Source of the DNA: a virus
IMG/VR virus record: IMGVR_UViG_3300038427_000078
DNA: 64,000 nucleotides
Direction: 5' to 3' (one strand)
The translations under genes were made by a program, and so were the position numbers. Numbering within the stretch: the stretch's first letter is position 1; the number at the start of each line of letters is the position of its first letter. Positions 5,206 to 57,392 of the stretch are shown here, one piece after another. Under the pieces are notes generated by a model. It saw nothing but the letters and a program-made list of their open reading frames with translations, was not told where the DNA came from and did no database searches.

Positions 5206-5637
5206 ATGACCCGTTTCAAAGGCGACAAGGACATTGTGCCAACCCGTACGCATAAGGTGTGCGGCAAGTGCAAACTGGATAAGGAGCTAACCGCCTTTGG
5301 TTTGTCTTCGACATCTCGCGATGGACGCCGTAGTCGCTGTACGGAATGTCGAAGTCGGTACGACTGTAAAGACAAGGCACTACGATCACAACGGCAACGA
5401 GAACGCTATGACGAAGGCAAACGATTCGTAGATGACCTCAAGACCAAAGGGTCGTGTATCGATTGCAAACAGAAATTTCATCCAGTTTGCATGCAGTTTC
5501 ATCACCGTGATCCTGCAACCAAGATCAAAGCGGTCGCAGAAATGCTTAGCCATAGCCGTGAGACTCTGGAAGCCGAGATAGCTAAGTGCGATTTGATCTG
5601 CGCTAACTGCCATCTTCTGCGTACCTACGGAGGATAA
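5206..5637 (+). CDS. HNH homing endonuclease
   Basis: CGKC..CTEC N-terminal Zn finger and CIDC..MQFHHRDP..KCDLICANCH HNH core. Preceded by ATAAAGGGTG-ATG. Confidence 0.85.
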   Translation: MTRFKGDKDIVPTRTHKVCGKCKLDKELTAFGLSSTSRDGRRSRCTECRSRYDCKDKALRSQRQRERYDEGKRFVDDLKTKGSCIDCKQKFHPVCMQFHHRDPATKIKAVAEMLSHSRETLEAEIAKCDLICANCHLLRTYGG

Positions 5638-7097: not shown

Positions 7098-7511
7098 ATG
7101 GCTACTAAAGTCTGCTCACGATGCGAACTTGAGAAGGAGTCGGATGACTTCTACTTCTACGCGGGAAGGTACTTCCCGTACTGCAAGGAATGCGCAGGCA
7201 AGGCCGACAAACGCCGTCGTGCCGAAGATCCTTTGCGCACCAAGCGCTCAGATCGAGCAGCGCATCTACGGCTATATGGTCTGACTTTAGCGGACTACGA
7301 TGCACTGCTTGAAGATCAGGGCGGTGTTTGCGCGATTTGTGGCACGGAAGAGAGTGGGCACGGGCGCACAGAACACTTCTTGGTCGATCATGACCACGAC
7401 ACAGATGAGGTTCGAGGACTTCTATGCCAGGGCTGCAATACTGGCCTGGGAGGATTTCGCGAGAACATAGACTCACTCAAATCGGCAATCGATTACTTGG
7501 AGAGATTCTAA
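7098..7511 (+). CDS. Endonuclease VII-family homing endonuclease
   Basis: YGLT..YD.LL..QGGVCAICG..LVDHDH.T.EVRGLLC..CN.GLG motif. TAATG overlap with the protease start. Confidence 0.9.
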   Translation: MATKVCSRCELEKESDDFYFYAGRYFPYCKECAGKADKRRRAEDPLRTKRSDRAAHLRLYGLTLADYDALLEDQGGVCAICGTEESGHGRTEHFLVDHDHDTDEVRGLLCQGCNTGLGGFRENIDSLKSAIDYLERF

Positions 7512-19782: not shown

Positions 19783-20265
19783 ATGGCCTTCACGAACTGC
19801 ACAATCACCGGAACCTTCAAGGATCCCAGCGGCAATCTTCTGAACGGCACCTTCGAAGCTACTCCTTCCGGTGTCATGCAGAACAGCGGCGTCACGACCT
19901 CGCCCAAGACGATCAAAGCCAAAATCACCGCAGGAGCACTCTCTGTCAAACTCGTTGCCAACAACGACCCCGGTACGCTGCCTCTGACTGGCCCGAGCAG
20001 CCTTGACGGAACGACCACCTTTTACACCATCAAGGTCATGTTGGGCGGAGTGGTGCAGGAACAGTTCACCGTTTTCGTCCTCCATGAAAAAGAAGAATGG
20101 GACATCACCGAACTGCGCGAAAAAGCAGGCCAAGTCGGGATCGCTCCGAGTCAGCGTCAGCCGTTGACCACAAGGGCGACCAATCAGCAGATCGTTGAAC
20201 TTCTCGGCAACCTCGGTTTGTGTGAGGTCATTCAGATCCAGCCTCTACCCGGAGAACTTCCATGA
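19783..20265 (+). CDS. Putative virion structural protein
   Basis: Beta-rich ORF that begins the neck/tail operon, preceded by GTAAAGGGTG-ATG. Confidence 0.6.
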   Translation: MAFTNCTITGTFKDPSGNLLNGTFEATPSGVMQNSGVTTSPKTIKAKITAGALSVKLVANNDPGTLPLTGPSSLDGTTTFYTIKVMLGGVVQEQFTVFVLHEKEEWDITELREKAGQVGIAPSQRQPLTTRATNQQIVELLGNLGLCEVIQIQPLPGELP

Positions 20266-21110
20266 TCGGCACCATCGCAGTCCGCTTCGACATCGGCCAG
20301 ATCAACAAAGGCGACACCGCCGAGTTGAAATCCGCGCTGCGGGTTGCCGATGGCGTGGTGGAAGCCAACGAAATCGCGTCCGTCACCTACACGGTCCAGC
20401 GACCGAACGGCATCCTCGAAGAGCCGGTCGAAGGTCGCATCGAACCAAATGGCGAAGGCTACTTCCAGTGGACCGAAACCGAAGAAGAAGGCAAATACAT
20501 CGCGCAGGCACAGTACCTACTCACCACAGGTGAGATTCGATCTTGCCTCGTCAACTTCACTGTTGAGGATCCCTTCCTCATAGACAACCAGCTTGAACAG
20601 ATTCTCGCAGAGGAGGTCTGGTTCAGGCTCGAAGACTGCTTCGAAGCTGTCGAAGGAGGCCCGTGGCTCCGCGACGAAACGCTGGCGAACTTCGATGAGA
20701 CTAAGATCCGTCGATTCATTCCCGAGGTACTGCTCGACATCAATGTGCAGTCGCCGTTGACCCGAGCCAGCCTTGGCGAATTCGTGTCGCTGGGTTCAAG
20801 CAACCCCAATCTTCCACTACTCGCCAAGGGCGTGCTCTGCAAGACGATTCAACACATGGTCCGTTCATACGCCGAGGTCGCCGTTCCAGTCGGCGGACAG
20901 GTTGTCTACGAAGAACGCGCGAACTACTGGCAGCGTTGGCAGACCATCTACAAGTCGGAGCACGAAGACTACTACACAATGGTCCGCCTCTGGAAGCGTG
21001 GATTCCTCGGATACGGCAAATCCGCTCTGCTCGTCAGCAGCAAGGCGGGTCGCCTCTTCTACGGCTCCGTGCAGCGCACCCGGAACGCAGGAAGGGGTGG
21101 CTATTACTAA
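20262..21110 (+). CDS. Head-to-tail adaptor with N-terminal Ig-like domain
   Basis: Position in the module and helical C-terminal half (VWFRLEDCFE..GGPWL, ..YWQRWQ). Confidence 0.6.
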   Translation: MIGTIAVRFDIGQINKGDTAELKSALRVADGVVEANEIASVTYTVQRPNGILEEPVEGRIEPNGEGYFQWTETEEEGKYIAQAQYLLTTGEIRSCLVNFTVEDPFLIDNQLEQILAEEVWFRLEDCFEAVEGGPWLRDETLANFDETKIRRFIPEVLLDINVQSPLTRASLGEFVSLGSSNPNLPLLAKGVLCKTIQHMVRSYAEVAVPVGGQVVYEERANYWQRWQTIYKSEHEDYYTMVRLWKRGFLGYGKSALLVSSKAGRLFYGSVQRTRNAGRGGYY

Positions 21111-21170
21111 TACCCTTCAACGGTTGTTACTACTGCTGCGTAATGGGTGGAAACTACCAAAGGAGGCTAT

Positions 21171-21590
21171 ATGAGTACCCGTGTCTGTAGCAAGTGCGGC
21201 GAAGTCAAGAACCTTGAGAAAGACTTTCAGAAGGGGAAGCGGTATCGGGGCGGATACTATGCCCAATGTCGCGATTGCCGTAAGAAGCATCCTTCGCAAA
21301 CCCCCGAAGCTAAGCTGTTGAATCTCTACAAGATTCGTCGGCGCAATCTTCAATTCGTTTGGGACTACTACAAGGCCCATCCCTGCGTTGACTGTGGTGA
21401 GCCTGATCCGATTGTATTGCAGCCGGATCATGTACGAGGCAAGAAGCTAGACGGCGTATCCAGGCTCGTACATAACAACCGCTCCTTGAAGGTAATAGCT
21501 GATGAGCTTGCCAAGTGCGAAATCGTGTGTGCCAACTGCCATGAACGGCGAACAGCCGTCACCCAAGGCTGGTACGCCGATGTTGTCTAG
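21171..21590 (+). CDS. HNH homing endonuclease
   Basis: HPCVDCGEPDPIVLQPDHVRG..KCEIVCANCHERRT. SD AAGGAGG, with the late motif at 21140. Confidence 0.88.
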   Translation: MSTRVCSKCGEVKNLEKDFQKGKRYRGGYYAQCRDCRKKHPSQTPEAKLLNLYKIRRRNLQFVWDYYKAHPCVDCGEPDPIVLQPDHVRGKKLDGVSRLVHNNRSLKVIADELAKCEIVCANCHERRTAVTQGWYADVV

Positions 21591-21954
21591 AATCAGATGT
21601 GGACCGACCGGATTCACGGTTCTCTTTCGAGAGGGTCATCCTCCAACGTTTTGTCAGCGCGTTACTGAGACACTTCCCATCTCTGGTCCGGGTAAGCTAG
21701 TTCTCAATCTCTTCGAGGAGTTCGGCACAGATGGTGTAGCCAACAAGGTCTGGAATCGCCTTGGTTACAACCCTCTAGTAGCACGCGGAACAAGGGTCAT
21801 CCGTTACATGCGTTATTTTGGTGGAGAGCCTTACTCGGAAGAGTACATGGATGTGAAGATAGTAGCCGAGAACGGAAGTGTGGAAAACGTAGGTTCCATG
21901 GAGGTCATCAGCCAAATCGAGCTAACGTATGCGGAGAAGAAAGTGGCCGCATGA
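21580..21954 (+). CDS. Truncated tail-tube paralogue (124 aa)
   Basis: Colinear with the tube protein at 25919: GFTV..FCQ.V, LVLNLFE.FG..G.A.KVW.RLG, PY.EEY, VG.ME...QI. Confidence 0.8.
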   Translation: MLSRIRCGPTGFTVLFREGHPPTFCQRVTETLPISGPGKLVLNLFEEFGTDGVANKVWNRLGYNPLVARGTRVIRYMRYFGGEPYSEEYMDVKIVAENGSVENVGSMEVISQIELTYAEKKVAA

Positions 21955-21974: not shown

Positions 21975-22766
21975 ATGCCGCGTGAACCACTCACTAAGCC
22001 CCTCTACAAAAACGTCATCCGGTTCCTTGGTGACGCTGGTAGCGCGGCTGACATCCGCCGTCGTAGGCGATGGACGGGGCAGACGATGCGCCGCCTTGGT
22101 ACCCCTGTGCTCATCAAGCACATGTATACCATCGATGATGTCAAGAAGAACCCGACCGAAGAGGAAATCCTCAACGGGACTGCTGCTCAACTAAGCACCA
22201 ACTTTGATACCGCCTACGACCAATCGACCCACAACGACCCGTTCTCACATGGGGTGGGTTATGTATCGTGGGCCACAACGGAAGGACTCGAACCGCAGGA
22301 ATGGATCGCTCCTGACCCCAACGGACGCAAGCAGGCCAAACTCGTCCAAGGACCATACGAAGAAGGCTTTGTCCCGGCTCCGCTCTATCGCGGCTATGGT
22401 CCGGGCTACCTGACCTACGTCATCCTGCCTGACGCTCCGGTCGATGTGTTCAAGCTCACAGACGAGGGCGCTCTCATTCGCACACAGCAGGCTCGCGTCA
22501 ACCTCCCGTGGTACCCGGAAGTGGGAGACAACGACATCCTCATCACCGTCGAACTGGACGCCGCTGAGCGCATCATCAAAACGGGCACCCGTTACCAGTT
22601 GAAGAAGGTCAACCCGGTCACCATGAGGGGCCGCGACAGGCTGGGACGACAGGAGCTAGGACAGATGATCGAGGGCGGAGGTAACAGGTACCGAGTGGGT
22701 CAGTTCTGCGAAGCTAACAAGGTGCCCGAGACTGAGCCGATCTATGAAGTGGAGACAGATCGATGA
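21975..22766 (+). CDS. Head-tail connector / stopper protein
   Basis: Synteny, plus beta-rich C-terminus LPWYPEVGDNDILI..RYQL. Confidence 0.55.
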   Translation: MPREPLTKPLYKNVIRFLGDAGSAADIRRRRRWTGQTMRRLGTPVLIKHMYTIDDVKKNPTEEEILNGTAAQLSTNFDTAYDQSTHNDPFSHGVGYVSWATTEGLEPQEWIAPDPNGRKQAKLVQGPYEEGFVPAPLYRGYGPGYLTYVILPDAPVDVFKLTDEGALIRTQQARVNLPWYPEVGDNDILITVELDAAERIIKTGTRYQLKKVNPVTMRGRDRLGRQELGQMIEGGGNRYRVGQFCEANKVPETEPIYEVETDR

Positions 22767-23923: not shown

Positions 23924-23965
23924 GAGAACTGATTTCTTGGTCGGTACTTGCTGGTAAATGACGAT

Positions 23966-24379
23966 ATGGATAGAGATTTTGGTCATTGGCTTGCTGGTTT
24001 CATTGATGGAGAGGGATGCTTCACCATCGTCAAAAATAGAGGATCCTGGCAATGCAATTTCGCGATATCCGTTCGGTCCGATGACGGTGCAATCTTGATA
24101 CAGGCCCGCGATTGGCTACAGGCCGGTCACATCTATCAGGCTCCTCGTAACCAGGGGCGAAATCCCATGGTCGAGTGGCGTATTGGCAGTTTAGATGATT
24201 GTTTAGCCCTCATCCAGTTGCTAGACGAGTGTCCTCTTCGAGCCAAGAAGGCAGCCGATTATCGAATCTGGCGCGAGGCCATATTTGCCAAACAAGAAAG
24301 CGACAATCGCAAGATAGGATCCCTAGCCCAAGTCCTCAAAGCAGGACGGGCTTACAAACTCGCGTCATCGCCTTGGTAA
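23966..24379 (+). CDS. LAGLIDADG homing endonuclease (single motif)
   Basis: WLAGFIDGEGCF, ..PLRAKKAADYRIW. Confidence 0.9.
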   Translation: MDRDFGHWLAGFIDGEGCFTIVKNRGSWQCNFAISVRSDDGAILIQARDWLQAGHIYQAPRNQGRNPMVEWRIGSLDDCLALIQLLDECPLRAKKAADYRIWREAIFAKQESDNRKIGSLAQVLKAGRAYKLASSPW

Positions 24380-25918: not shown

Positions 25919-26620
25919 ATGGCATCAGAATTCTTGAAATCCAGAGGTCGAGTCGGTGGTTCCGGCTTCACCGTATTCACCTTCGGCGGACAGCCAATCG
26001 CGTTCTGCCAGCAGGTGTCCTACACCAGCCCCCAGCCAGTCGGCGGAGGCGCTTCCCCTATTCAGCCGATGGACGAGCCGTACCCGGTTGAGATTATGAC
26101 GCCCGCCGCAGCAGGCATGGGCCAAGTCGTACTCAACTTGTTCGAGCTTTTCGGATCCAACGGCATCGCATCGAAGGTGTGGGACCGTCTAGGTCTATCC
26201 CTCGGTGCCGGGTTCAGCGCAAGCAACCCATTCGGAGCCAACACTCCGGAAAACCAGTCAACGAACTTCACCCTCACAGGCGAAACCGTCAAGAACGAAC
26301 AGAGCGCACCATTTGCGGGCGCTGTGGACATCGTGGACGTGTTCGTCCGTCAGGCACAGACCGAAGCCCACAAGCTACAGATCGTCAAGATCGTTCGCCC
26401 GCTCAACCCGAACGGACCTCCGGGTAACGCCGAAGTCCAGCCGTACACAGAAGAGTACCACGGCTGCGCGATCACGAACATTCAGGATGGCGAGCAGATT
26501 TCTGTCGGCACGATGGAAATCCTCAAGCAGATCACGGTCAACTTCTGCTACGTGACCCGTAACGGACAGACGAGCCTCGCGTTCAAACTCCGTAACGACC
26601 CACTAGCCGCTGCTGGCTGA
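25919..26620 (+). CDS. Tail tube protein
   Basis: Follows the sheath gene. RVGGSGFTVF and YHGCAITNIQDGEQISVGTM motifs. Confidence 0.85.
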   Translation: MASEFLKSRGRVGGSGFTVFTFGGQPIAFCQQVSYTSPQPVGGGASPIQPMDEPYPVEIMTPAAAGMGQVVLNLFELFGSNGIASKVWDRLGLSLGAGFSASNPFGANTPENQSTNFTLTGETVKNEQSAPFAGAVDIVDVFVRQAQTEAHKLQIVKIVRPLNPNGPPGNAEVQPYTEEYHGCAITNIQDGEQISVGTMEILKQITVNFCYVTRNGQTSLAFKLRNDPLAAAG

Positions 26621-26648: not shown

Positions 26649-26990
26649 ATGGCTTTCGACAAGAAAGCATACATGAGGGAGTATCGACCAAGGTATCGTC
26701 AAGAACATCCTGAGAAGAATCGCGACTATCAGAGGAAGCGCGAACAGGAAAGACGCGATCTATTCGCGGATATCAAGACCAAAGCCGGTTGTGCTCGATG
26801 CGGATACAAAGACAACCCATATGGACTAGAGTTTCATCATCGCGACCCAAGCGAAAAGAGTTTCCCTATCGCTCATGGTTCCAAACGTTCCCTCAAAGCG
26901 ATACTAGCAGAGATTGCAAAGTGTGATGTCCTTTGCGGTACATGTCATTCTATCGTAACTCACGATCCGGAGGTTAGGTCAAATGTCTGA
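26649..26990 (+). CDS. HNH endonuclease
   Basis: GCARCG..LEFHHRDP..KCDVLCGTCH. Confidence 0.85.
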   Translation: MAFDKKAYMREYRPRYRQEHPEKNRDYQRKREQERRDLFADIKTKAGCARCGYKDNPYGLEFHHRDPSEKSFPIAHGSKRSLKAILAEIAKCDVLCGTCHSIVTHDPEVRSNV

Positions 26991-27782: not shown

Positions 27783-27813
27783 TGAAATAGCGAGGGGCGG
27801 GGCGTAATAGCTG

Positions 27814-29904
27814 ATGGCCGACGAATCTCCACAGCCGATTGATCCGCAGCGCTCGCTCAAACGTTCGCTTGACCAGCTAACACAGGCGGTGCGGTCGATG
27901 AACAAGCACCTGGAATCCCTCGACGCTGAGGGCCAGGGCCAGTACATCGAGGGCCAGAAAGAGTCGAACGCAGCGAAAAAGATCCGCGAAGCATCGTGGT
28001 CTATGCAGGAGGCTAGAAAACCCTCCTCCCAGCTACAGCAGCCGGGTTCACTCAACCCCGACGCCTCTATCTCTGACGCGATTGCGTCGATCAAGTCGGC
28101 CTACGAGAACCAGAATGTGAACGCGGTTCAGCGGGCCGCTGATATGGTCAATAAAGCGGGCACCATGAGGCTACCAGAAGCGGAAGCTCAGGAAGCCAAA
28201 GAAGACGAAGCGAACTACTACCAGGAACTCCAAGACAAGCGCATGACTGGCCTGGGATGGATGACCCCCGACAAGATGGAAAAGCTGCGCGCAGAAACTC
28301 CGCATCTCAAGGGCTACTCCTACGGCAATTGGGAACGCAAAGCAAGGGTCGTTGAAAGCCGAGTCGGTGGAGCGCAAGCCTACGCAACTAAAGCCGCAGC
28401 CAAGATGGGTGAAGAAGGTCACGAAGGACTGGCGAATGCTTTCGGAAGTGTTGCCAAGGGCGCAGGCAAGATAGAAGAAAATGCCATGCCTATCGTCATT
28501 GGCGTAGACATGGCAAAGCGAGCCTGGGCAGGAATGGAAAAGGGACAGAGGAACGTTATCGAAGGTACGGGCCTGGGCTACTCCGGTGAAGGCGTACCTG
28601 GCGGTCAGTTCCTACCAGGAGGTATTCGTAACCCGCTGGCTCTCTTCACCGAAGCTGGTCAGCAAGGGTTCGGCATCAAAGCCGCTGCCATCGAAAACGC
28701 CCTCAAGGGTAACCTTGGGTTCGGTGAATCCGCCAAGCTGTCTGAAAACCTCGCCAGCCTGGGATTCAGCAACCGACACGGCAGCGGTATCCCAGGCTTC
28801 CTCGGCCTGGACAACAGCGGTCGCAACCAAGAACTTGTGGAACTCGGCAGCAAAGCGAAACGAGAGGGCTTGCCGGAAGCCGAGTTCGTGAAAATGGCCG
28901 AAGGCATCAGGTTCGGTGGAGGTTCGATCAAGCAGTTGAACGAAAACATCAACGGGCTAGGCGAAGCTGCCAAGAATGCTGGAACCAGCACGAAGGTACT
29001 GGCCGAAAGCATGAACGAATACGCCGCCCTCACCGAAAAGGAAGGACCGAAAACAGCGCAGGAACGCAAGGGCAGGGAAATCTTCGAAAACACAGGTAGG
29101 CCCGCGAAGCTGACTGCCGAAGTGAACAACACGGCGCTAGGCAAGGCGACGGCTGGTCGCTACGGGATCCTCCCTGGCACCATTGGCAACACCAAAGGTG
29201 ACTTCCAGAACGCCATTGAATTGCAGACCATCGAACAGGCCGCTCACATGACGCGCGGTGGTGTGGTAGCTCACATCACGAACCCGGAAACTGGTGAAAC
29301 GATCACCAGCGGTAACTCGAAGGAAATGCAAGCTGCCGAAATGTCCAAAATCTACGGCATCCCGCCGCAGCTAGCGATGCTGTATCTCAACGACCCGAAG
29401 AAGTTCAAGCAGTCCGAGTTCGCGGGCGGTGAAATCTCCAACCACATCAAGCGTCTACAGGCCGAGCAGAAGTCAGGTCTGCCAGGATACAATCAGGGAG
29501 CCGAATGGGGCAAGCTGTGGGGTGCCACGGACGATCTTATCACCGCAAAGCAGTACCAGGCCGACTACAAGATCGACAAAGGAGGCATCAAGTCACAGCA
29601 GGCGTTGCAGGCGCAGGTTGACGAAGCCAAAGAAAAGCTCAATGAACAGCAGGGCAACGGTCAGGGCGAAATCACACTCAGCAAGGAAGCTCAGCGATTC
29701 TTCAAGCTCAACATGCCGAAACAGTATGCGAAGTTCCAGAAGGAACGTGAAAAGGAAGAAGGCAAGTCGGGAGCGCAAGGAGCTACGAAACCAAGTACGG
29801 GCAAGACCTCGATACCAGGAGAAGCCTTGGGTGCTCTAGGCAACGCGGCTCAGGCGGGGGCCGAAGCTCTGCCTAACCTCGCTCTTCACGCCTTCCTACC
29901 GTAA
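27814..29904 (+). CDS. Tape measure protein (short)
   Basis: Follows the chaperone. Helical, A/G/E/K-rich, 696 aa, with the late motif at 27804. Confidence 0.7.
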   Translation: MADESPQPIDPQRSLKRSLDQLTQAVRSMNKHLESLDAEGQGQYIEGQKESNAAKKIREASWSMQEARKPSSQLQQPGSLNPDASISDAIASIKSAYENQNVNAVQRAADMVNKAGTMRLPEAEAQEAKEDEANYYQELQDKRMTGLGWMTPDKMEKLRAETPHLKGYSYGNWERKARVVESRVGGAQAYATKAAAKMGEEGHEGLANAFGSVAKGAGKIEENAMPIVIGVDMAKRAWAGMEKGQRNVIEGTGLGYSGEGVPGGQFLPGGIRNPLALFTEAGQQGFGIKAAAIENALKGNLGFGESAKLSENLASLGFSNRHGSGIPGFLGLDNSGRNQELVELGSKAKREGLPEAEFVKMAEGIRFGGGSIKQLNENINGLGEAAKNAGTSTKVLAESMNEYAALTEKEGPKTAQERKGREIFENTGRPAKLTAEVNNTALGKATAGRYGILPGTIGNTKGDFQNAIELQTIEQAAHMTRGGVVAHITNPETGETITSGNSKEMQAAEMSKIYGIPPQLAMLYLNDPKKFKQSEFAGGEISNHIKRLQAEQKSGLPGYNQGAEWGKLWGATDDLITAKQYQADYKIDKGGIKSQQALQAQVDEAKEKLNEQQGNGQGEITLSKEAQRFFKLNMPKQYAKFQKEREKEEGKSGAQGATKPSTGKTSIPGEALGALGNAAQAGAEALPNLALHAFLP

Positions 29905-38969: not shown

Positions 38970-39386
38970 ATGAGCGAACGAGCTATTCTAACGGCATACC
39001 GACGAGGAGAGACTGTCGCCTCTATGGTCAATCGACTTGGCACAAGTCGGTACGCAATATACAAGGCGATCAATCGTCATGATGTATCAAAACGCAAAGC
39101 AGCAAAGCAACCCGATTGGCCGGAGTCTGGTCACGGAAAATGGGTTGATAAACAAGGCTATGTCACAGTTTGGTATCGGGGTAAGCCAAGACGAGAGCAC
39201 CGTTGCGTCATGGAAGTAGCCCTCGGTAGGAGACTTCTCAAGTCAGAGACAGTGCATCATGTCAATGGGGATCGATCAGACAATCGCATCGAGAACCTAC
39301 AACTACGACAAGGACATCATGGCCCTGGCGTGGTAATGTGCTGTGCAGAGTGCGGTTCGCATAACCTTCGTCCAACGGAGGCGTGA
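38970..39386 (+). CDS. HNH endonuclease with N-terminal HTH
   Basis: EHRCVME..LGRRL...ETVHHVNGDRSDNRIENLQL. Confidence 0.88.
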   Translation: MSERAILTAYRRGETVASMVNRLGTSRYAIYKAINRHDVSKRKAAKQPDWPESGHGKWVDKQGYVTVWYRGKPRREHRCVMEVALGRRLLKSETVHHVNGDRSDNRIENLQLRQGHHGPGVVMCCAECGSHNLRPTEA

Positions 39387-48048: not shown

Positions 48049-48507
48049 TCAAGCGTATAGCTCAAGCACGTAGTGGGCGAACTCCACCAGATCCGCGACC
48101 CGTGCGCCGGTAGGATGGATCGCAGCCCATAACTCAAGGTTCTCGGGGCGGTTGTCATCGCGGATGAGGTTCTTGTGATGGACTGTCTCATGCGGCAGAA
48201 GCTCGCGCCCTAGCCGTTCCTCCATGATGCGACGATGAGCGAGGAATCGTTCTCCGTCAACTTCGTGGACGATGTATCCGTCCGATGTGATCGATCCTTC
48301 GCCCTTCAAACGACGCATCTGTATCGGTTTGCCCGCCAAGGGATCACCGAACTTGAGTTGTCGTTGATAGTGGGCATTACAGAGTTCATCCCGCAAAGCC
48401 CATTTGTCGCACCCCTCAACACGACAAGGTAGGTTCTTGTCCTTCTGGCGATAGTAGTAGGCTAGGGACTTCGCCGCGTCCCGTTCTTTCTGTGCCTGGG
48501 TTCTCAT
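48049..48507 (-). CDS. HNH endonuclease
   Basis: AHRRIME..LGREL...ETVHHKN..RDDNRPENLELW. Late motif at 48505-48517. Confidence 0.88.
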   Translation of the reverse strand: MRTQAQKERDAAKSLAYYYRQKDKNLPCRVEGCDKWALRDELCNAHYQRQLKFGDPLAGKPIQMRRLKGEGSITSDGYIVHEVDGERFLAHRRIMEERLGRELLPHETVHHKNLIRDDNRPENLELWAAIHPTGARVADLVEFAHYVLELYA

Positions 48508-56836: not shown

Positions 56837-56988
56837 ACCTGTAATCTCCCATTAGCATCAACAGGTACCCACTTTGTCTCGCCTTCGGCAATAACTAGAA
56901 GCTCCTTGTATCCGCACAGGCACTCGCGATATGTGTGCCCTTTTCGTTTGACGAGGATCACATGGTCCCCATGACAAGTGTAGCTCAT
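56833..56988 (-). CDS. Small Zn-ribbon-like hypothetical protein
   Basis: MSYTCHGDH..RECLCG. ATGA overlap with the HNH stop codon. Confidence 0.5.
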   Translation of the reverse strand: MSYTCHGDHVILVKRKGHTYRECLCGYKELLVIAEGETKWVPVDANGRLQV

Positions 56989-57392
56989 CTCAACCTTTCT
57001 GGCGCGTATTGCTGTAGTAGTTCTTCTGCCCACTCTATCAGATCAGATACGCGCTGTCCGGTCGGGTGGGAACTGCTCCAAAGCTCAAGATTCTTGATGT
57101 CGTTTTCTGCCTTTCCTCGCTTGTGATGGACTGTCTCGCTCTTGAGCAAAGGCCGACCAAGATGTTCTTCCATGATGACGCGATGCTCTGCACGTTGCTT
57201 ACCATCGACGTAAATGAAACGATAACCACTCTTGCGAAGCGTTCCTCCGGTAGAAGGTCTGCCCTTCTTGCGAATAGGGAACAGCTTACCGTATCTACGT
57301 CGTTGATCGTAGTGAGGTTCACATAGGCTGGACTTGTAGGACGGACGATCACAGTCTGGTCCTTGGCATGTTGGGGATTGTCGATATCTCAT
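56985..57392 (-). CDS. HNH endonuclease
   Basis: AEHRVIMEEHLGRPL...ETVHHK....ENDIKNLELW. Late motif at 57390-57402. Confidence 0.88.
   Translation of the reverse strand: MRYRQSPTCQGPDCDRPSYKSSLCEPHYDQRRRYGKLFPIRKKGRPSTGGTLRKSGYRFIYVDGKQRAEHRVIMEEHLGRPLLKSETVHHKRGKAENDIKNLELWSSSHPTGQRVSDLIEWAEELLQQYAPERLR

Follow-up and report, generated by a model that had tools for sequence, protein, structure and literature searches.

The 64,000-nucleotide stretch of viral DNA analysed here, referred to as the window (IMG/VR virus record IMGVR_UViG_3300038427_000078), carries within its tail module a small open reading frame (ORF) that is a shortened paralogue of the tail tube gene of the same phage. We call this ORF the mini-tube. 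It lies between two conserved genes, gB and gC, and its start overlaps the end of the gene for an HNH homing endonuclease, HNH1. The features of the locus, together with the full-length tube gene, are the following.

20262..21110, plus strand: gB, conserved upstream neighbour of the insertion site
21171..21590, plus strand: HNH1, homing endonuclease (phrog_2255, E 1.5e-30); ATG 21171 follows a strong AAGGAGG, and GTG 21147 is in frame
21580..21954, plus strand: mini-tube ORF, 124-amino-acid form (P0001), from ATG 21580 to TGA 21952-21954
Same open frame, longer forms: ATG 21502, 150 amino acids; ATG 21541, 137 amino acids (P0004, the choice of public gene callers)
21975..22766, plus strand: gC, conserved downstream neighbour of the insertion site
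25919..26620, plus strand: tail tube gene (P0002, 233 amino acids), full-length paralogue, with hairpin tip PMDEP and post-helix motif D-I...Q-A

BLASTP aligns P0001 with P0002 in two collinear high-scoring segment pairs (34/87 identities, E 2e-16; 13/36 identities, E 8e-6). The first contains a single 25-residue gap, exactly at the QPVGGG...TPA stretch of the tube. A multiple alignment that includes six tubes from related phages matches the mini-tube end to end, with four gaps: about 25 residues at the β2-β3 hairpin, about 58 directly after the conserved helix, about 6 before PY(S/T)EEY, and about 14 at the C-terminus. All four preserve the frame and lie in loops or arms; none interrupts a strand. 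The G+C content at third codon positions (GC3) of the mini-tube is 0.52, against 0.68-0.75 in gB, gC, gD, the sheath gene, the tube gene, and gE, and 0.43-0.63 in the homing endonuclease genes of the window.

These results bear out the core of a sequence-only reading of the window, which had placed the 124-residue ORF in this frame and at these coordinates, with an 11-nt overlap with the HNH1 stop (TAG 21588-21590), and had described it as a tube paralogue lacking about 25 and about 55 central residues in frame and richer in A/T-ending codons than the core tail genes. The paralogy is confirmed, the sequence similarity being far beyond chance. A fusion of HNH1 with the mini-tube by frameshifting was set aside: the mini-tube frame is +1 to that of HNH1, and no slippery site was seen by eye in 21502-21590.

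P0002 is assigned as the tail tube by synteny and by orthology with gp124 of phage Catera. Its gene lies directly behind that of the sheath (PHROG tail sheath, E 1e-43) and is followed by a chaperone-like gene and then a 696-residue gene in the tape-measure position, an order that matches Catera gp123-gp128 (gp123 sheath, gp124, frameshifted chaperone, tape measure). Its sole relatives from cultured phages are 155-residue proteins encoded after the sheath gene in Bxz1-like mycobacteriophages, at 28% identity; the orthologue in phage Spud is named 'tail tube protein' in UniProt. The tubes of this clade form at least 521 clusters at 90% identity, against seven mini-tube clusters. Across 116 of them, the invariant columns include P50, D52, E53, and P54 at the hairpin tip and D137, I138, Q145, and A146 after the helix. 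The 155-residue Catera tube, a bona fide tube, retains both the hairpin tip and the post-helix motif while lacking the variable Gly/Ser/Asn-rich loop and the C-terminal extension.

Fold of the mini-tube and the elements it lacks

The core of the canonical tube subunit consists of eight antiparallel strands flanked by one helix, with an extended β2-β3 hairpin (PMC9022992). An AlphaFold2 (AF2) model of P0001, built from a seven-row alignment, reaches a predicted local distance difference test score (pLDDT) of 79 and a predicted template modelling score of 0.73. In this model, strands at residues 10-17, 20-31, and 38-47 are followed by a helix at 53-61 and five more strands, giving the eight antiparallel strands and single helix of the tube fold. 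The top Foldseek matches of the model in the PDB are all Hcp or tube proteins (best E 2.7e-3), and a Foldseek-independent search (VIA) ranks phage tubes first (Z 6.6-6.0). The top match in BFVD is the Bxz1-type tube of Spud (E 2e-4), a shape search of the Atlas gives template modelling (TM) scores of 0.52-0.63 to tube clusters, and a language-model feature look-up with the mini-tube returns tube clusters with a score of 0.92. Sequence searches of the PDB with tube and mini-tube profiles gave no match.

The long β2-β3 loop is the main mediator of inter-ring contacts, and most siphophage tubes are predicted to be unstable in assembly without it (PMC9022992). For contractile tubes, both this hairpin and the segment after the helix are named as inter-ring contacts (PMC9022992), and the long hairpin has also been described as the ring-stacking interface elsewhere (PMC11850899, PMC12803255). 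In siphophage tubes, the N-terminal arm receives the long loop of the neighbouring ring (PMC9022992).

The alignment and the P0001 model place the first gap of the mini-tube exactly at the β2-β3 turn and the second directly after the helix. The same holds across the family described below: all seven mini-tubes have a gap of 22-30 residues at this turn and lack the PMDEP tip, and they are also without the post-helix segment, including D137, I138, Q145, and A146. They thus have neither the long hairpin nor the post-helix inter-ring segment of a polymerising subunit. Three members, P0007, P0008, and, if read from an internal Met, P0010, begin directly at strand β1 and so lack the N-terminal arm as well. 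The core is retained, as is the most conserved segment of the tubes, VLNLFE-FG-x-G-A-KVW-RLG.

Since the two gaps fall on elements named as inter-ring contacts, the model soundly supports a description of the mini-tube family as a tube subunit that would be stripped of its axial contacts with its core retained. The sequence-only reading had expected a tube fold from which the stacking hairpin was deleted; both expectations hold up, and the post-helix segment proves to be missing in addition. The family would thereby mark, by natural deletion, the parts of a contractile-tail tube that are dispensable for folding.

A complex prediction combining the tube (116-row alignment) with the mini-tube (seven rows) scored 0.06 against a mark of 0.32 and speaks neither for nor against binding. 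Isoelectric points (pI) of the mini-tubes range from 5.0 to 8.7, much like those of the tubes, and neither pI nor charge separates the two groups.

The mini-tube family and its genomic settings

An exhaustive HMMER search over 1.84 billion representatives, with a profile search in addition, revealed further hairpin-less proteins. The former returned P0007, P0008, P0010, P0006, and P0013, of 130-167 residues and 41-56% identity, and the latter added P0016, for a family of seven. Word-based searches with the mini-tube found the same phage only. A maximum-likelihood tree that also includes 19 tubes unites the seven in a single clade (support 100/99); most of their terminal branches measure about 0.7-1.6 changes per site, whereas the median over all rows is about 0.3. 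All seven frames are intact; a random 124-codon frame is open about 1% of the time. The long-range ratio of non-synonymous to synonymous substitution rates (dN/dS) among mini-tubes is at most about 0.24-0.28, with dS saturated. In the other genomes, mini-tube GC3 equals that of the neighbouring genes, from 0.50 to 0.86.

No model in Pfam, PHROG, NCBIfam, or PADLOC matches the family, and a scan of GTDB species genomes with the mini-tube profile found no relative. The IMG/VR search for the mini-tube returned a single contig (G003), and a public phage genome collection gave neither a DNA match for the region nor a tblastn match for P0001 or P0008. A tblastn match on the minus strand of contig L004 (17741-17887) was rejected as a spurious frame inside another gene. 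On these sequence comparisons, the mini-tubes are a small, fast-evolving family of single origin in uncultured relatives, of about 145-170 kb, of the Bxz1-like myophages.

The distribution of the mini-tube is sporadic. G003, a complete genome of 170 kb, has its tube at 31.6 kb on the minus strand and a mini-tube at 88.1 kb on the plus strand, 56 kb from the tail genes. Three of the four near-complete relatives, G001 (168 kb), G002 (160 kb), and G004 (144 kb, 90% complete), have a tube and no mini-tube, as does Catera. On five contigs (L010, L011, L012, L013, and L014), the mini-tube sits in long same-strand arrays of genes for proteins of 55-250 residues, among them ThyX, an RF-1-domain protein, DUF4326, NADAR, and a metallophosphatase; neither a tail gene nor an HNH gene is close by. 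A sixth mini-tube lies on a contig of only 2.1 kb (L024), surrounded by small unannotated genes. Judged from their gene content, the arrays have the look of an early or accessory region. The mini-tube of the window is a real accessory gene.

One of the array contigs also carries unusual metabolic cargo for a phage: L012:16365-20052 encodes lysine aminomutase subunits (Lys-AminoMut_A and OAM_dimer/B12-binding) and a class II aminoacyl-tRNA synthetase. L010, another mini-tube contig, likewise has a B12-binding subunit.

In the window, the mini-tube occupies a variable junction of the tail module. Four relatives (L003, L005, L006, and L008) have gB directly followed by gC. An HNH1 orthologue of 58-59% identity stands at the same junction, with no mini-tube, in L004 and L031; a different HNH gene occupies it in L032, and two unrelated small ORFs do so in L001, L007, and L033. 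The gB-gC junction is therefore an insertion hot spot. The pair of HNH1 and mini-tube is confined to the lineage of the window (L022, L023, and L030, from other samples, at 99.9-100% identity), where the mini-tube is identical or nearly so in four samples. Peat and soil samples contain this phage, JGI 3300009518 and 3300009519 among them. In a DNA alignment with the HNH1 orthologues, homology runs to the HNH stop codon and ends there, which places the junction with the mini-tube no more than a few bases from this codon.

The window holds at least eight homing endonuclease genes (seven HNH/EndoVII and one LAGLIDADG). Besides HNH1, these are the following.

5206-5637: homing endonuclease gene
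7098-7511: homing endonuclease gene
23948-24379: homing endonuclease gene (LAGLIDADG)
26649-26990: homing endonuclease gene
38970-39386: homing endonuclease gene
48049-48507, minus strand: homing endonuclease gene
56985-57392, minus strand: homing endonuclease gene

Close relatives differ in which of these genes they carry: several are absent from some of them, with HNH2 and the LAGLIDADG gene missing from L026-L029. One phage without these two genes has a tube that is 98% identical. With eight endonucleases among about 65 genes, an endonuclease neighbour is expected by chance in roughly one case in four. The sequence-only reading had suggested that HNH1 and the mini-tube may spread together as a selfish cassette. 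This part of it is not supported: HNH1 stands without the mini-tube in L004 and L031, the mini-tube stands without an HNH gene in L010-L014, and gain and loss of the two in related genomes are not coupled. Given this and the chance expectation, the adjacency needs no special explanation and looks accidental. The low GC3 of the mini-tube fits a recent arrival from a genome or region of lower GC3; its relatives in L011 and L012 have GC3 values of 0.50-0.52.

A near-identical strain carries an extra gene for a 206-residue HNH protein between gC and gD (L030:2159-2812, Ga0116107_1011250; about position 22738 of the window). Its 3' end repeats the last ten or so codons of gC (EPIYEVETDR), and gC itself ends EPLYSVETDR. 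By its sequence, this duplication is the apparent footprint of a homing-endonuclease insertion with a recoded target.

Two start motifs lie around HNH1 and the mini-tube.

21493..21504, plus strand: TAATAGCTGATG, exact TAA-N4-YG-ATG copy, fused to ATG 21502, inside the 3' end of HNH1 and in the mini-tube frame
21140..21149, plus strand: GTAATGGGTG, upstream motif variant, shared with the starts of the sheath gene and of the HNH gene at 48507 (minus strand)

TAA-N4-YG-ATG occurs 14 times in the window against 1.6 expected, and an ORF of 58-900 residues follows every copy (positions 294, 5197, 5964, 7089, 13574(-), 15584(-), 19774, 21493, 27805, 35794, 36252, 48516(-), 57401(-), and 62851(-)). 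The full 12-mer found at 21493 recurs at 27805 and 36252, before genes at 27814 and 36261. The motif precedes tail-module genes and at least four HNH genes, and because several of its bearers are HNH genes it is not specific to structural genes; it is also found at the start of the tube gene in relatives L003, L004, and L006. Its copy fused to ATG 21502 suggests a possible alternative product of 150 residues, with the first 26 codons overlapping HNH1. HNH1 orthologues without the mini-tube have GTAATAGAAGATG at this site, one base off, so that 11 of the 12 motif positions are owed to conserved HNH coding sequence.

The late motif that had been noticed at 21140 stands in its short form only. 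GTAATGGRTG is found three times in the window (21140, the sheath start at 24376, and 48508(-)) against 0.1 expected, but the 18-mer around it (21137-21154) does not recur at up to three mismatches. A scan for sigma-70-type promoters found nothing at HNH1 and the mini-tube.

Three further observations concern other contigs. In L004:9980-11599 (IMGVR_UViG_3300009518_000015), the tube gene contains an in-frame insertion of about 316 residues at HG|C (tube residue 183), with LAGLIDADG-like motifs and the ending ...YTGN|C; it looks like an intein with a homing endonuclease inside the tail tube gene. In L002:336-2078 and L004:8210-9943, the match to the sheath gene is interrupted: some 215-230 nt separate the parts that correspond to residues 57 and 60 of the sheath in the window. 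A lineage-specific insertion and a small intervening element are both conceivable. L009:8575-9315 (IMGVR_UViG_3300046816_000419) adjoins a major head protein gene and encodes a 246-residue protein with hydrophobic N- and C-terminal segments. This protein contains IQPMDEPYPIEI, the invariant tube hairpin tip, in otherwise unrelated sequence (BLASTP 9e-8 against tube residues 24-63), and is apparently the reciprocal of the mini-tube: a hairpin without the core.

Possible roles of the mini-tube

We propose that the mini-tube descends from a tube-core paralogue of single origin that would have been stripped of the β2-β3 hairpin and the post-helix segment, and in several members also of the N- and C-terminal arms. 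The elements lost would be the joints between rings along the tube axis, and the eight strands and helix kept would serve the subunit itself and its lateral contacts. The family would normally reside among small non-structural genes; in the window's lineage, a copy would have landed in the gB-gC hot spot, right behind the unrelated HNH1, and may there have gained a start motif of the structural-gene type. The protein would mimic an unassembled tube subunit and compete for whatever binds that subunit. Taken as a whole, mimicry included, we consider this account probable on balance. Its descriptive part, comprising the paralogy, the family, the fold, the missing elements, the sporadic distribution, and the independence from HNH1, we hold with high confidence.

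Two targets of such a mimic may be envisaged. The first is a host sensor of the tube protein, for which the mini-tube could act as an immune decoy or sponge. Bacterial immunity is known to respond to the tube protein. DSR2 encloses the entire tube core and passes the long hairpin through a hole, and a small hairpin deletion halves its activation (PMC11850899). A decoy is plausible because DSR2 engulfs the core, and a core-only mimic could fill a DSR2-like pocket; we entertain this role tentatively. Avs16 reads the conserved tube hairpin itself (PMC12803255). The second target would be tube assembly, in which lateral entry into rings or binding of free subunits would stop stacking. For co-infecting relatives and the phage's own tail taken together, we entertain such interference about as tentatively as the decoy.

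Several points weigh against the proposal. The fold searches gave moderate scores (Z below 8, TM about 0.5), and VIA also matched PilZ and split-barrel proteins; the scores are nonetheless mutually consistent and agree with the sequence homology. An AF2 model of the full-length tube (nine sequences) reached a pLDDT of 38 and was unusable, leaving no superposition of tube and mini-tube. What the deleted parts do is therefore judged from the alignment to the canonical topology, from the mini-tube model, and from published descriptions of tubes. A sensor that reads the hairpin, such as Avs16, could not be deceived by a protein in which this hairpin is missing. That the ORF is kept open, as had been supposed, is borne out by intact frames in seven divergent lineages and by the low long-range dN/dS. 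A caution comes from the only close pair of mini-tubes (L014/L024), which has a dN/dS of 2.4 (3 synonymous against 24 non-synonymous changes, p 0.07-0.11). Such a ratio is compatible both with an arms race and with relaxed constraint, and is proof of neither one; positive selection was rejected as a conclusion, the excess coming from a single pair and not being significant. The window's mini-tube may itself be decaying: it is the shortest of the seven, reads DV in place of the GC of the other members, and is missing the V-x-R motif at the C-terminus. Lastly, the partner and the phenotype of the mini-tube are, at this stage, inferred.

Among narrower or different accounts, the first is a dominant-negative blocker aimed at co-infecting relatives, in which the protein joins hexamers laterally and, having no stacking elements, stops tube growth. 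The mini-tubes keep the core and its most conserved segment and have lost all stacking elements, they are sporadic and fast-evolving like conflict genes, and the genome is rich in homing endonucleases, another tool of phage-phage competition. However, in the window the gene lies in the phage's own tail module and may share a start motif with tail genes, so that it would be made alongside the phage's own tube, with no evident self-immunity; nor is any member known from a satellite or host genome. We regard this account as unlikely.

A neofunctionalised, Hcp-like ring is less likely still. Here a non-stacking hexamer would serve an unrelated early task, for instance as a carrier or chaperone of small proteins or in nucleic acid binding. 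The free rings of Hcp from the type VI secretion system (T6SS), which provides the top Foldseek matches, and the place of the family among early-type small genes agree with such a role, but the charge is not distinctive (the pI range resembles that of the tubes) and no conserved neighbour gene points to a client.

The mini-tube of this genome might also be a functionless remnant, that is, a tube fragment or a decaying family member brought in by endonuclease-driven recombination and open by chance. Endonuclease insertions do duplicate pieces of neighbouring genes, as in the second copy of the last ten gC codons in L030. The low GC3, the short length with loss of two family motifs, and the fact that the sole difference between strains in 1394 nt is a non-synonymous change inside the mini-tube are also compatible with decay. 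Against this, the family as a whole is clearly maintained, the window's copy folds confidently and is nearly invariant across four samples, and its four gaps spare every strand and the frame. We consider a remnant improbable.

Interference with the phage's own tail is very improbable, and so is the dedicated tube cap put forward in the sequence-only reading, in which a mini-tube ring would accept the hairpins of the last ring and end growth or modulate tail length: although caps and terminators of contractile systems share the tube fold, the AFP and PVC caps and the T4 neck-tail complex are among the fold matches, and the window's copy keeps the N-terminal arm, the long-loop receiver of siphophage tubes, the gene is absent from G001, G002, G004, and Catera despite the same tail module, lies far from the tail genes on the opposite strand in G003, and in three members begins at strand β1 with no such arm, while conserved gC and gD fill the usual terminator positions. 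The mini-tube would not be a standard virion part.

Comparison with known systems

Tube-fold paralogues with structural jobs, such as initiators, terminators, and caps, are textbook knowledge. A conserved, accessory tube core without the stacking elements is absent from the family libraries and from the text searches we made, which found no tube-derived decoy and nothing on a stack-less tube core.

The closest relatives are the myophage tubes, T4 gp19 and the Bxz1-type gp124 of Catera and Spud. The mini-tube is their direct homologue (39-42% identity to this phage's tube) and has in common with them the eight-strand β-sandwich with its helix and the conserved segment from β3 to the helix. Unlike them, it has no PMDEP hairpin, post-helix segment, or C-terminal arm, does not follow the sheath gene, is sporadic, and evolves several times faster.

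Tail terminators and tube caps (lambda gpU, T4 gp3, and those of AFP and PVC) are small proteins related to the tube fold; they assemble as a single ring from which the tube is not extended. They are conserved and essential and are encoded in the neck or tail module of every member of a group, whereas most relatives have no mini-tube, and where one is present the tail genes usually lie far away. T6SS Hcp, the best Foldseek match, is likewise a minimal tube fold of similar size and exists as free rings; in contrast to the phage-encoded mini-tube, to which it has no sequence relation, Hcp stacks in the sheath and has an extended loop of its own.

Phage satellites encode homologues of capsid proteins that redirect the capsid assembly of the helper. 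Like these, the mini-tube has diverged from a virion protein of which it is a copy, and could alter the result by co-assembling with it. The satellite proteins act on capsids and are satellite-borne, whereas the mini-tube concerns the tail tube and is carried by the phage itself.

Finally, a sporadic, fast-evolving, putatively early tube mimic fits the profile of a counter-defence protein against tube sensing, as in DSR2/DSAD1 and Avs16. To our knowledge, the DSR2 inhibitor DSAD1 is not a tube homologue. The mini-tube matches no model in PADLOC, Pfam, PHROG, or NCBIfam. By analogy, the mini-tubes might tentatively be placed in a counter-defence or phage-versus-phage class, in which a virion protein cut down to its recognisable core and produced early would soak up DSR2- or Avs-like host sensors of unassembled tube protein, or else poison the rings of rival relatives.

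Tube proteins trigger bacterial immunity through DSR2 and Avs16, and a stack-less mimic would therefore be a probe of how sensors distinguish free tube protein from assembled. It would equally probe whether phages use mimics of virion proteins as decoys, or as weapons against relatives. What sets the mini-tube apart from the systems above is its combination of features: a conserved, fast-evolving, and sporadic tube core without stacking elements, usually encoded among early-type genes.

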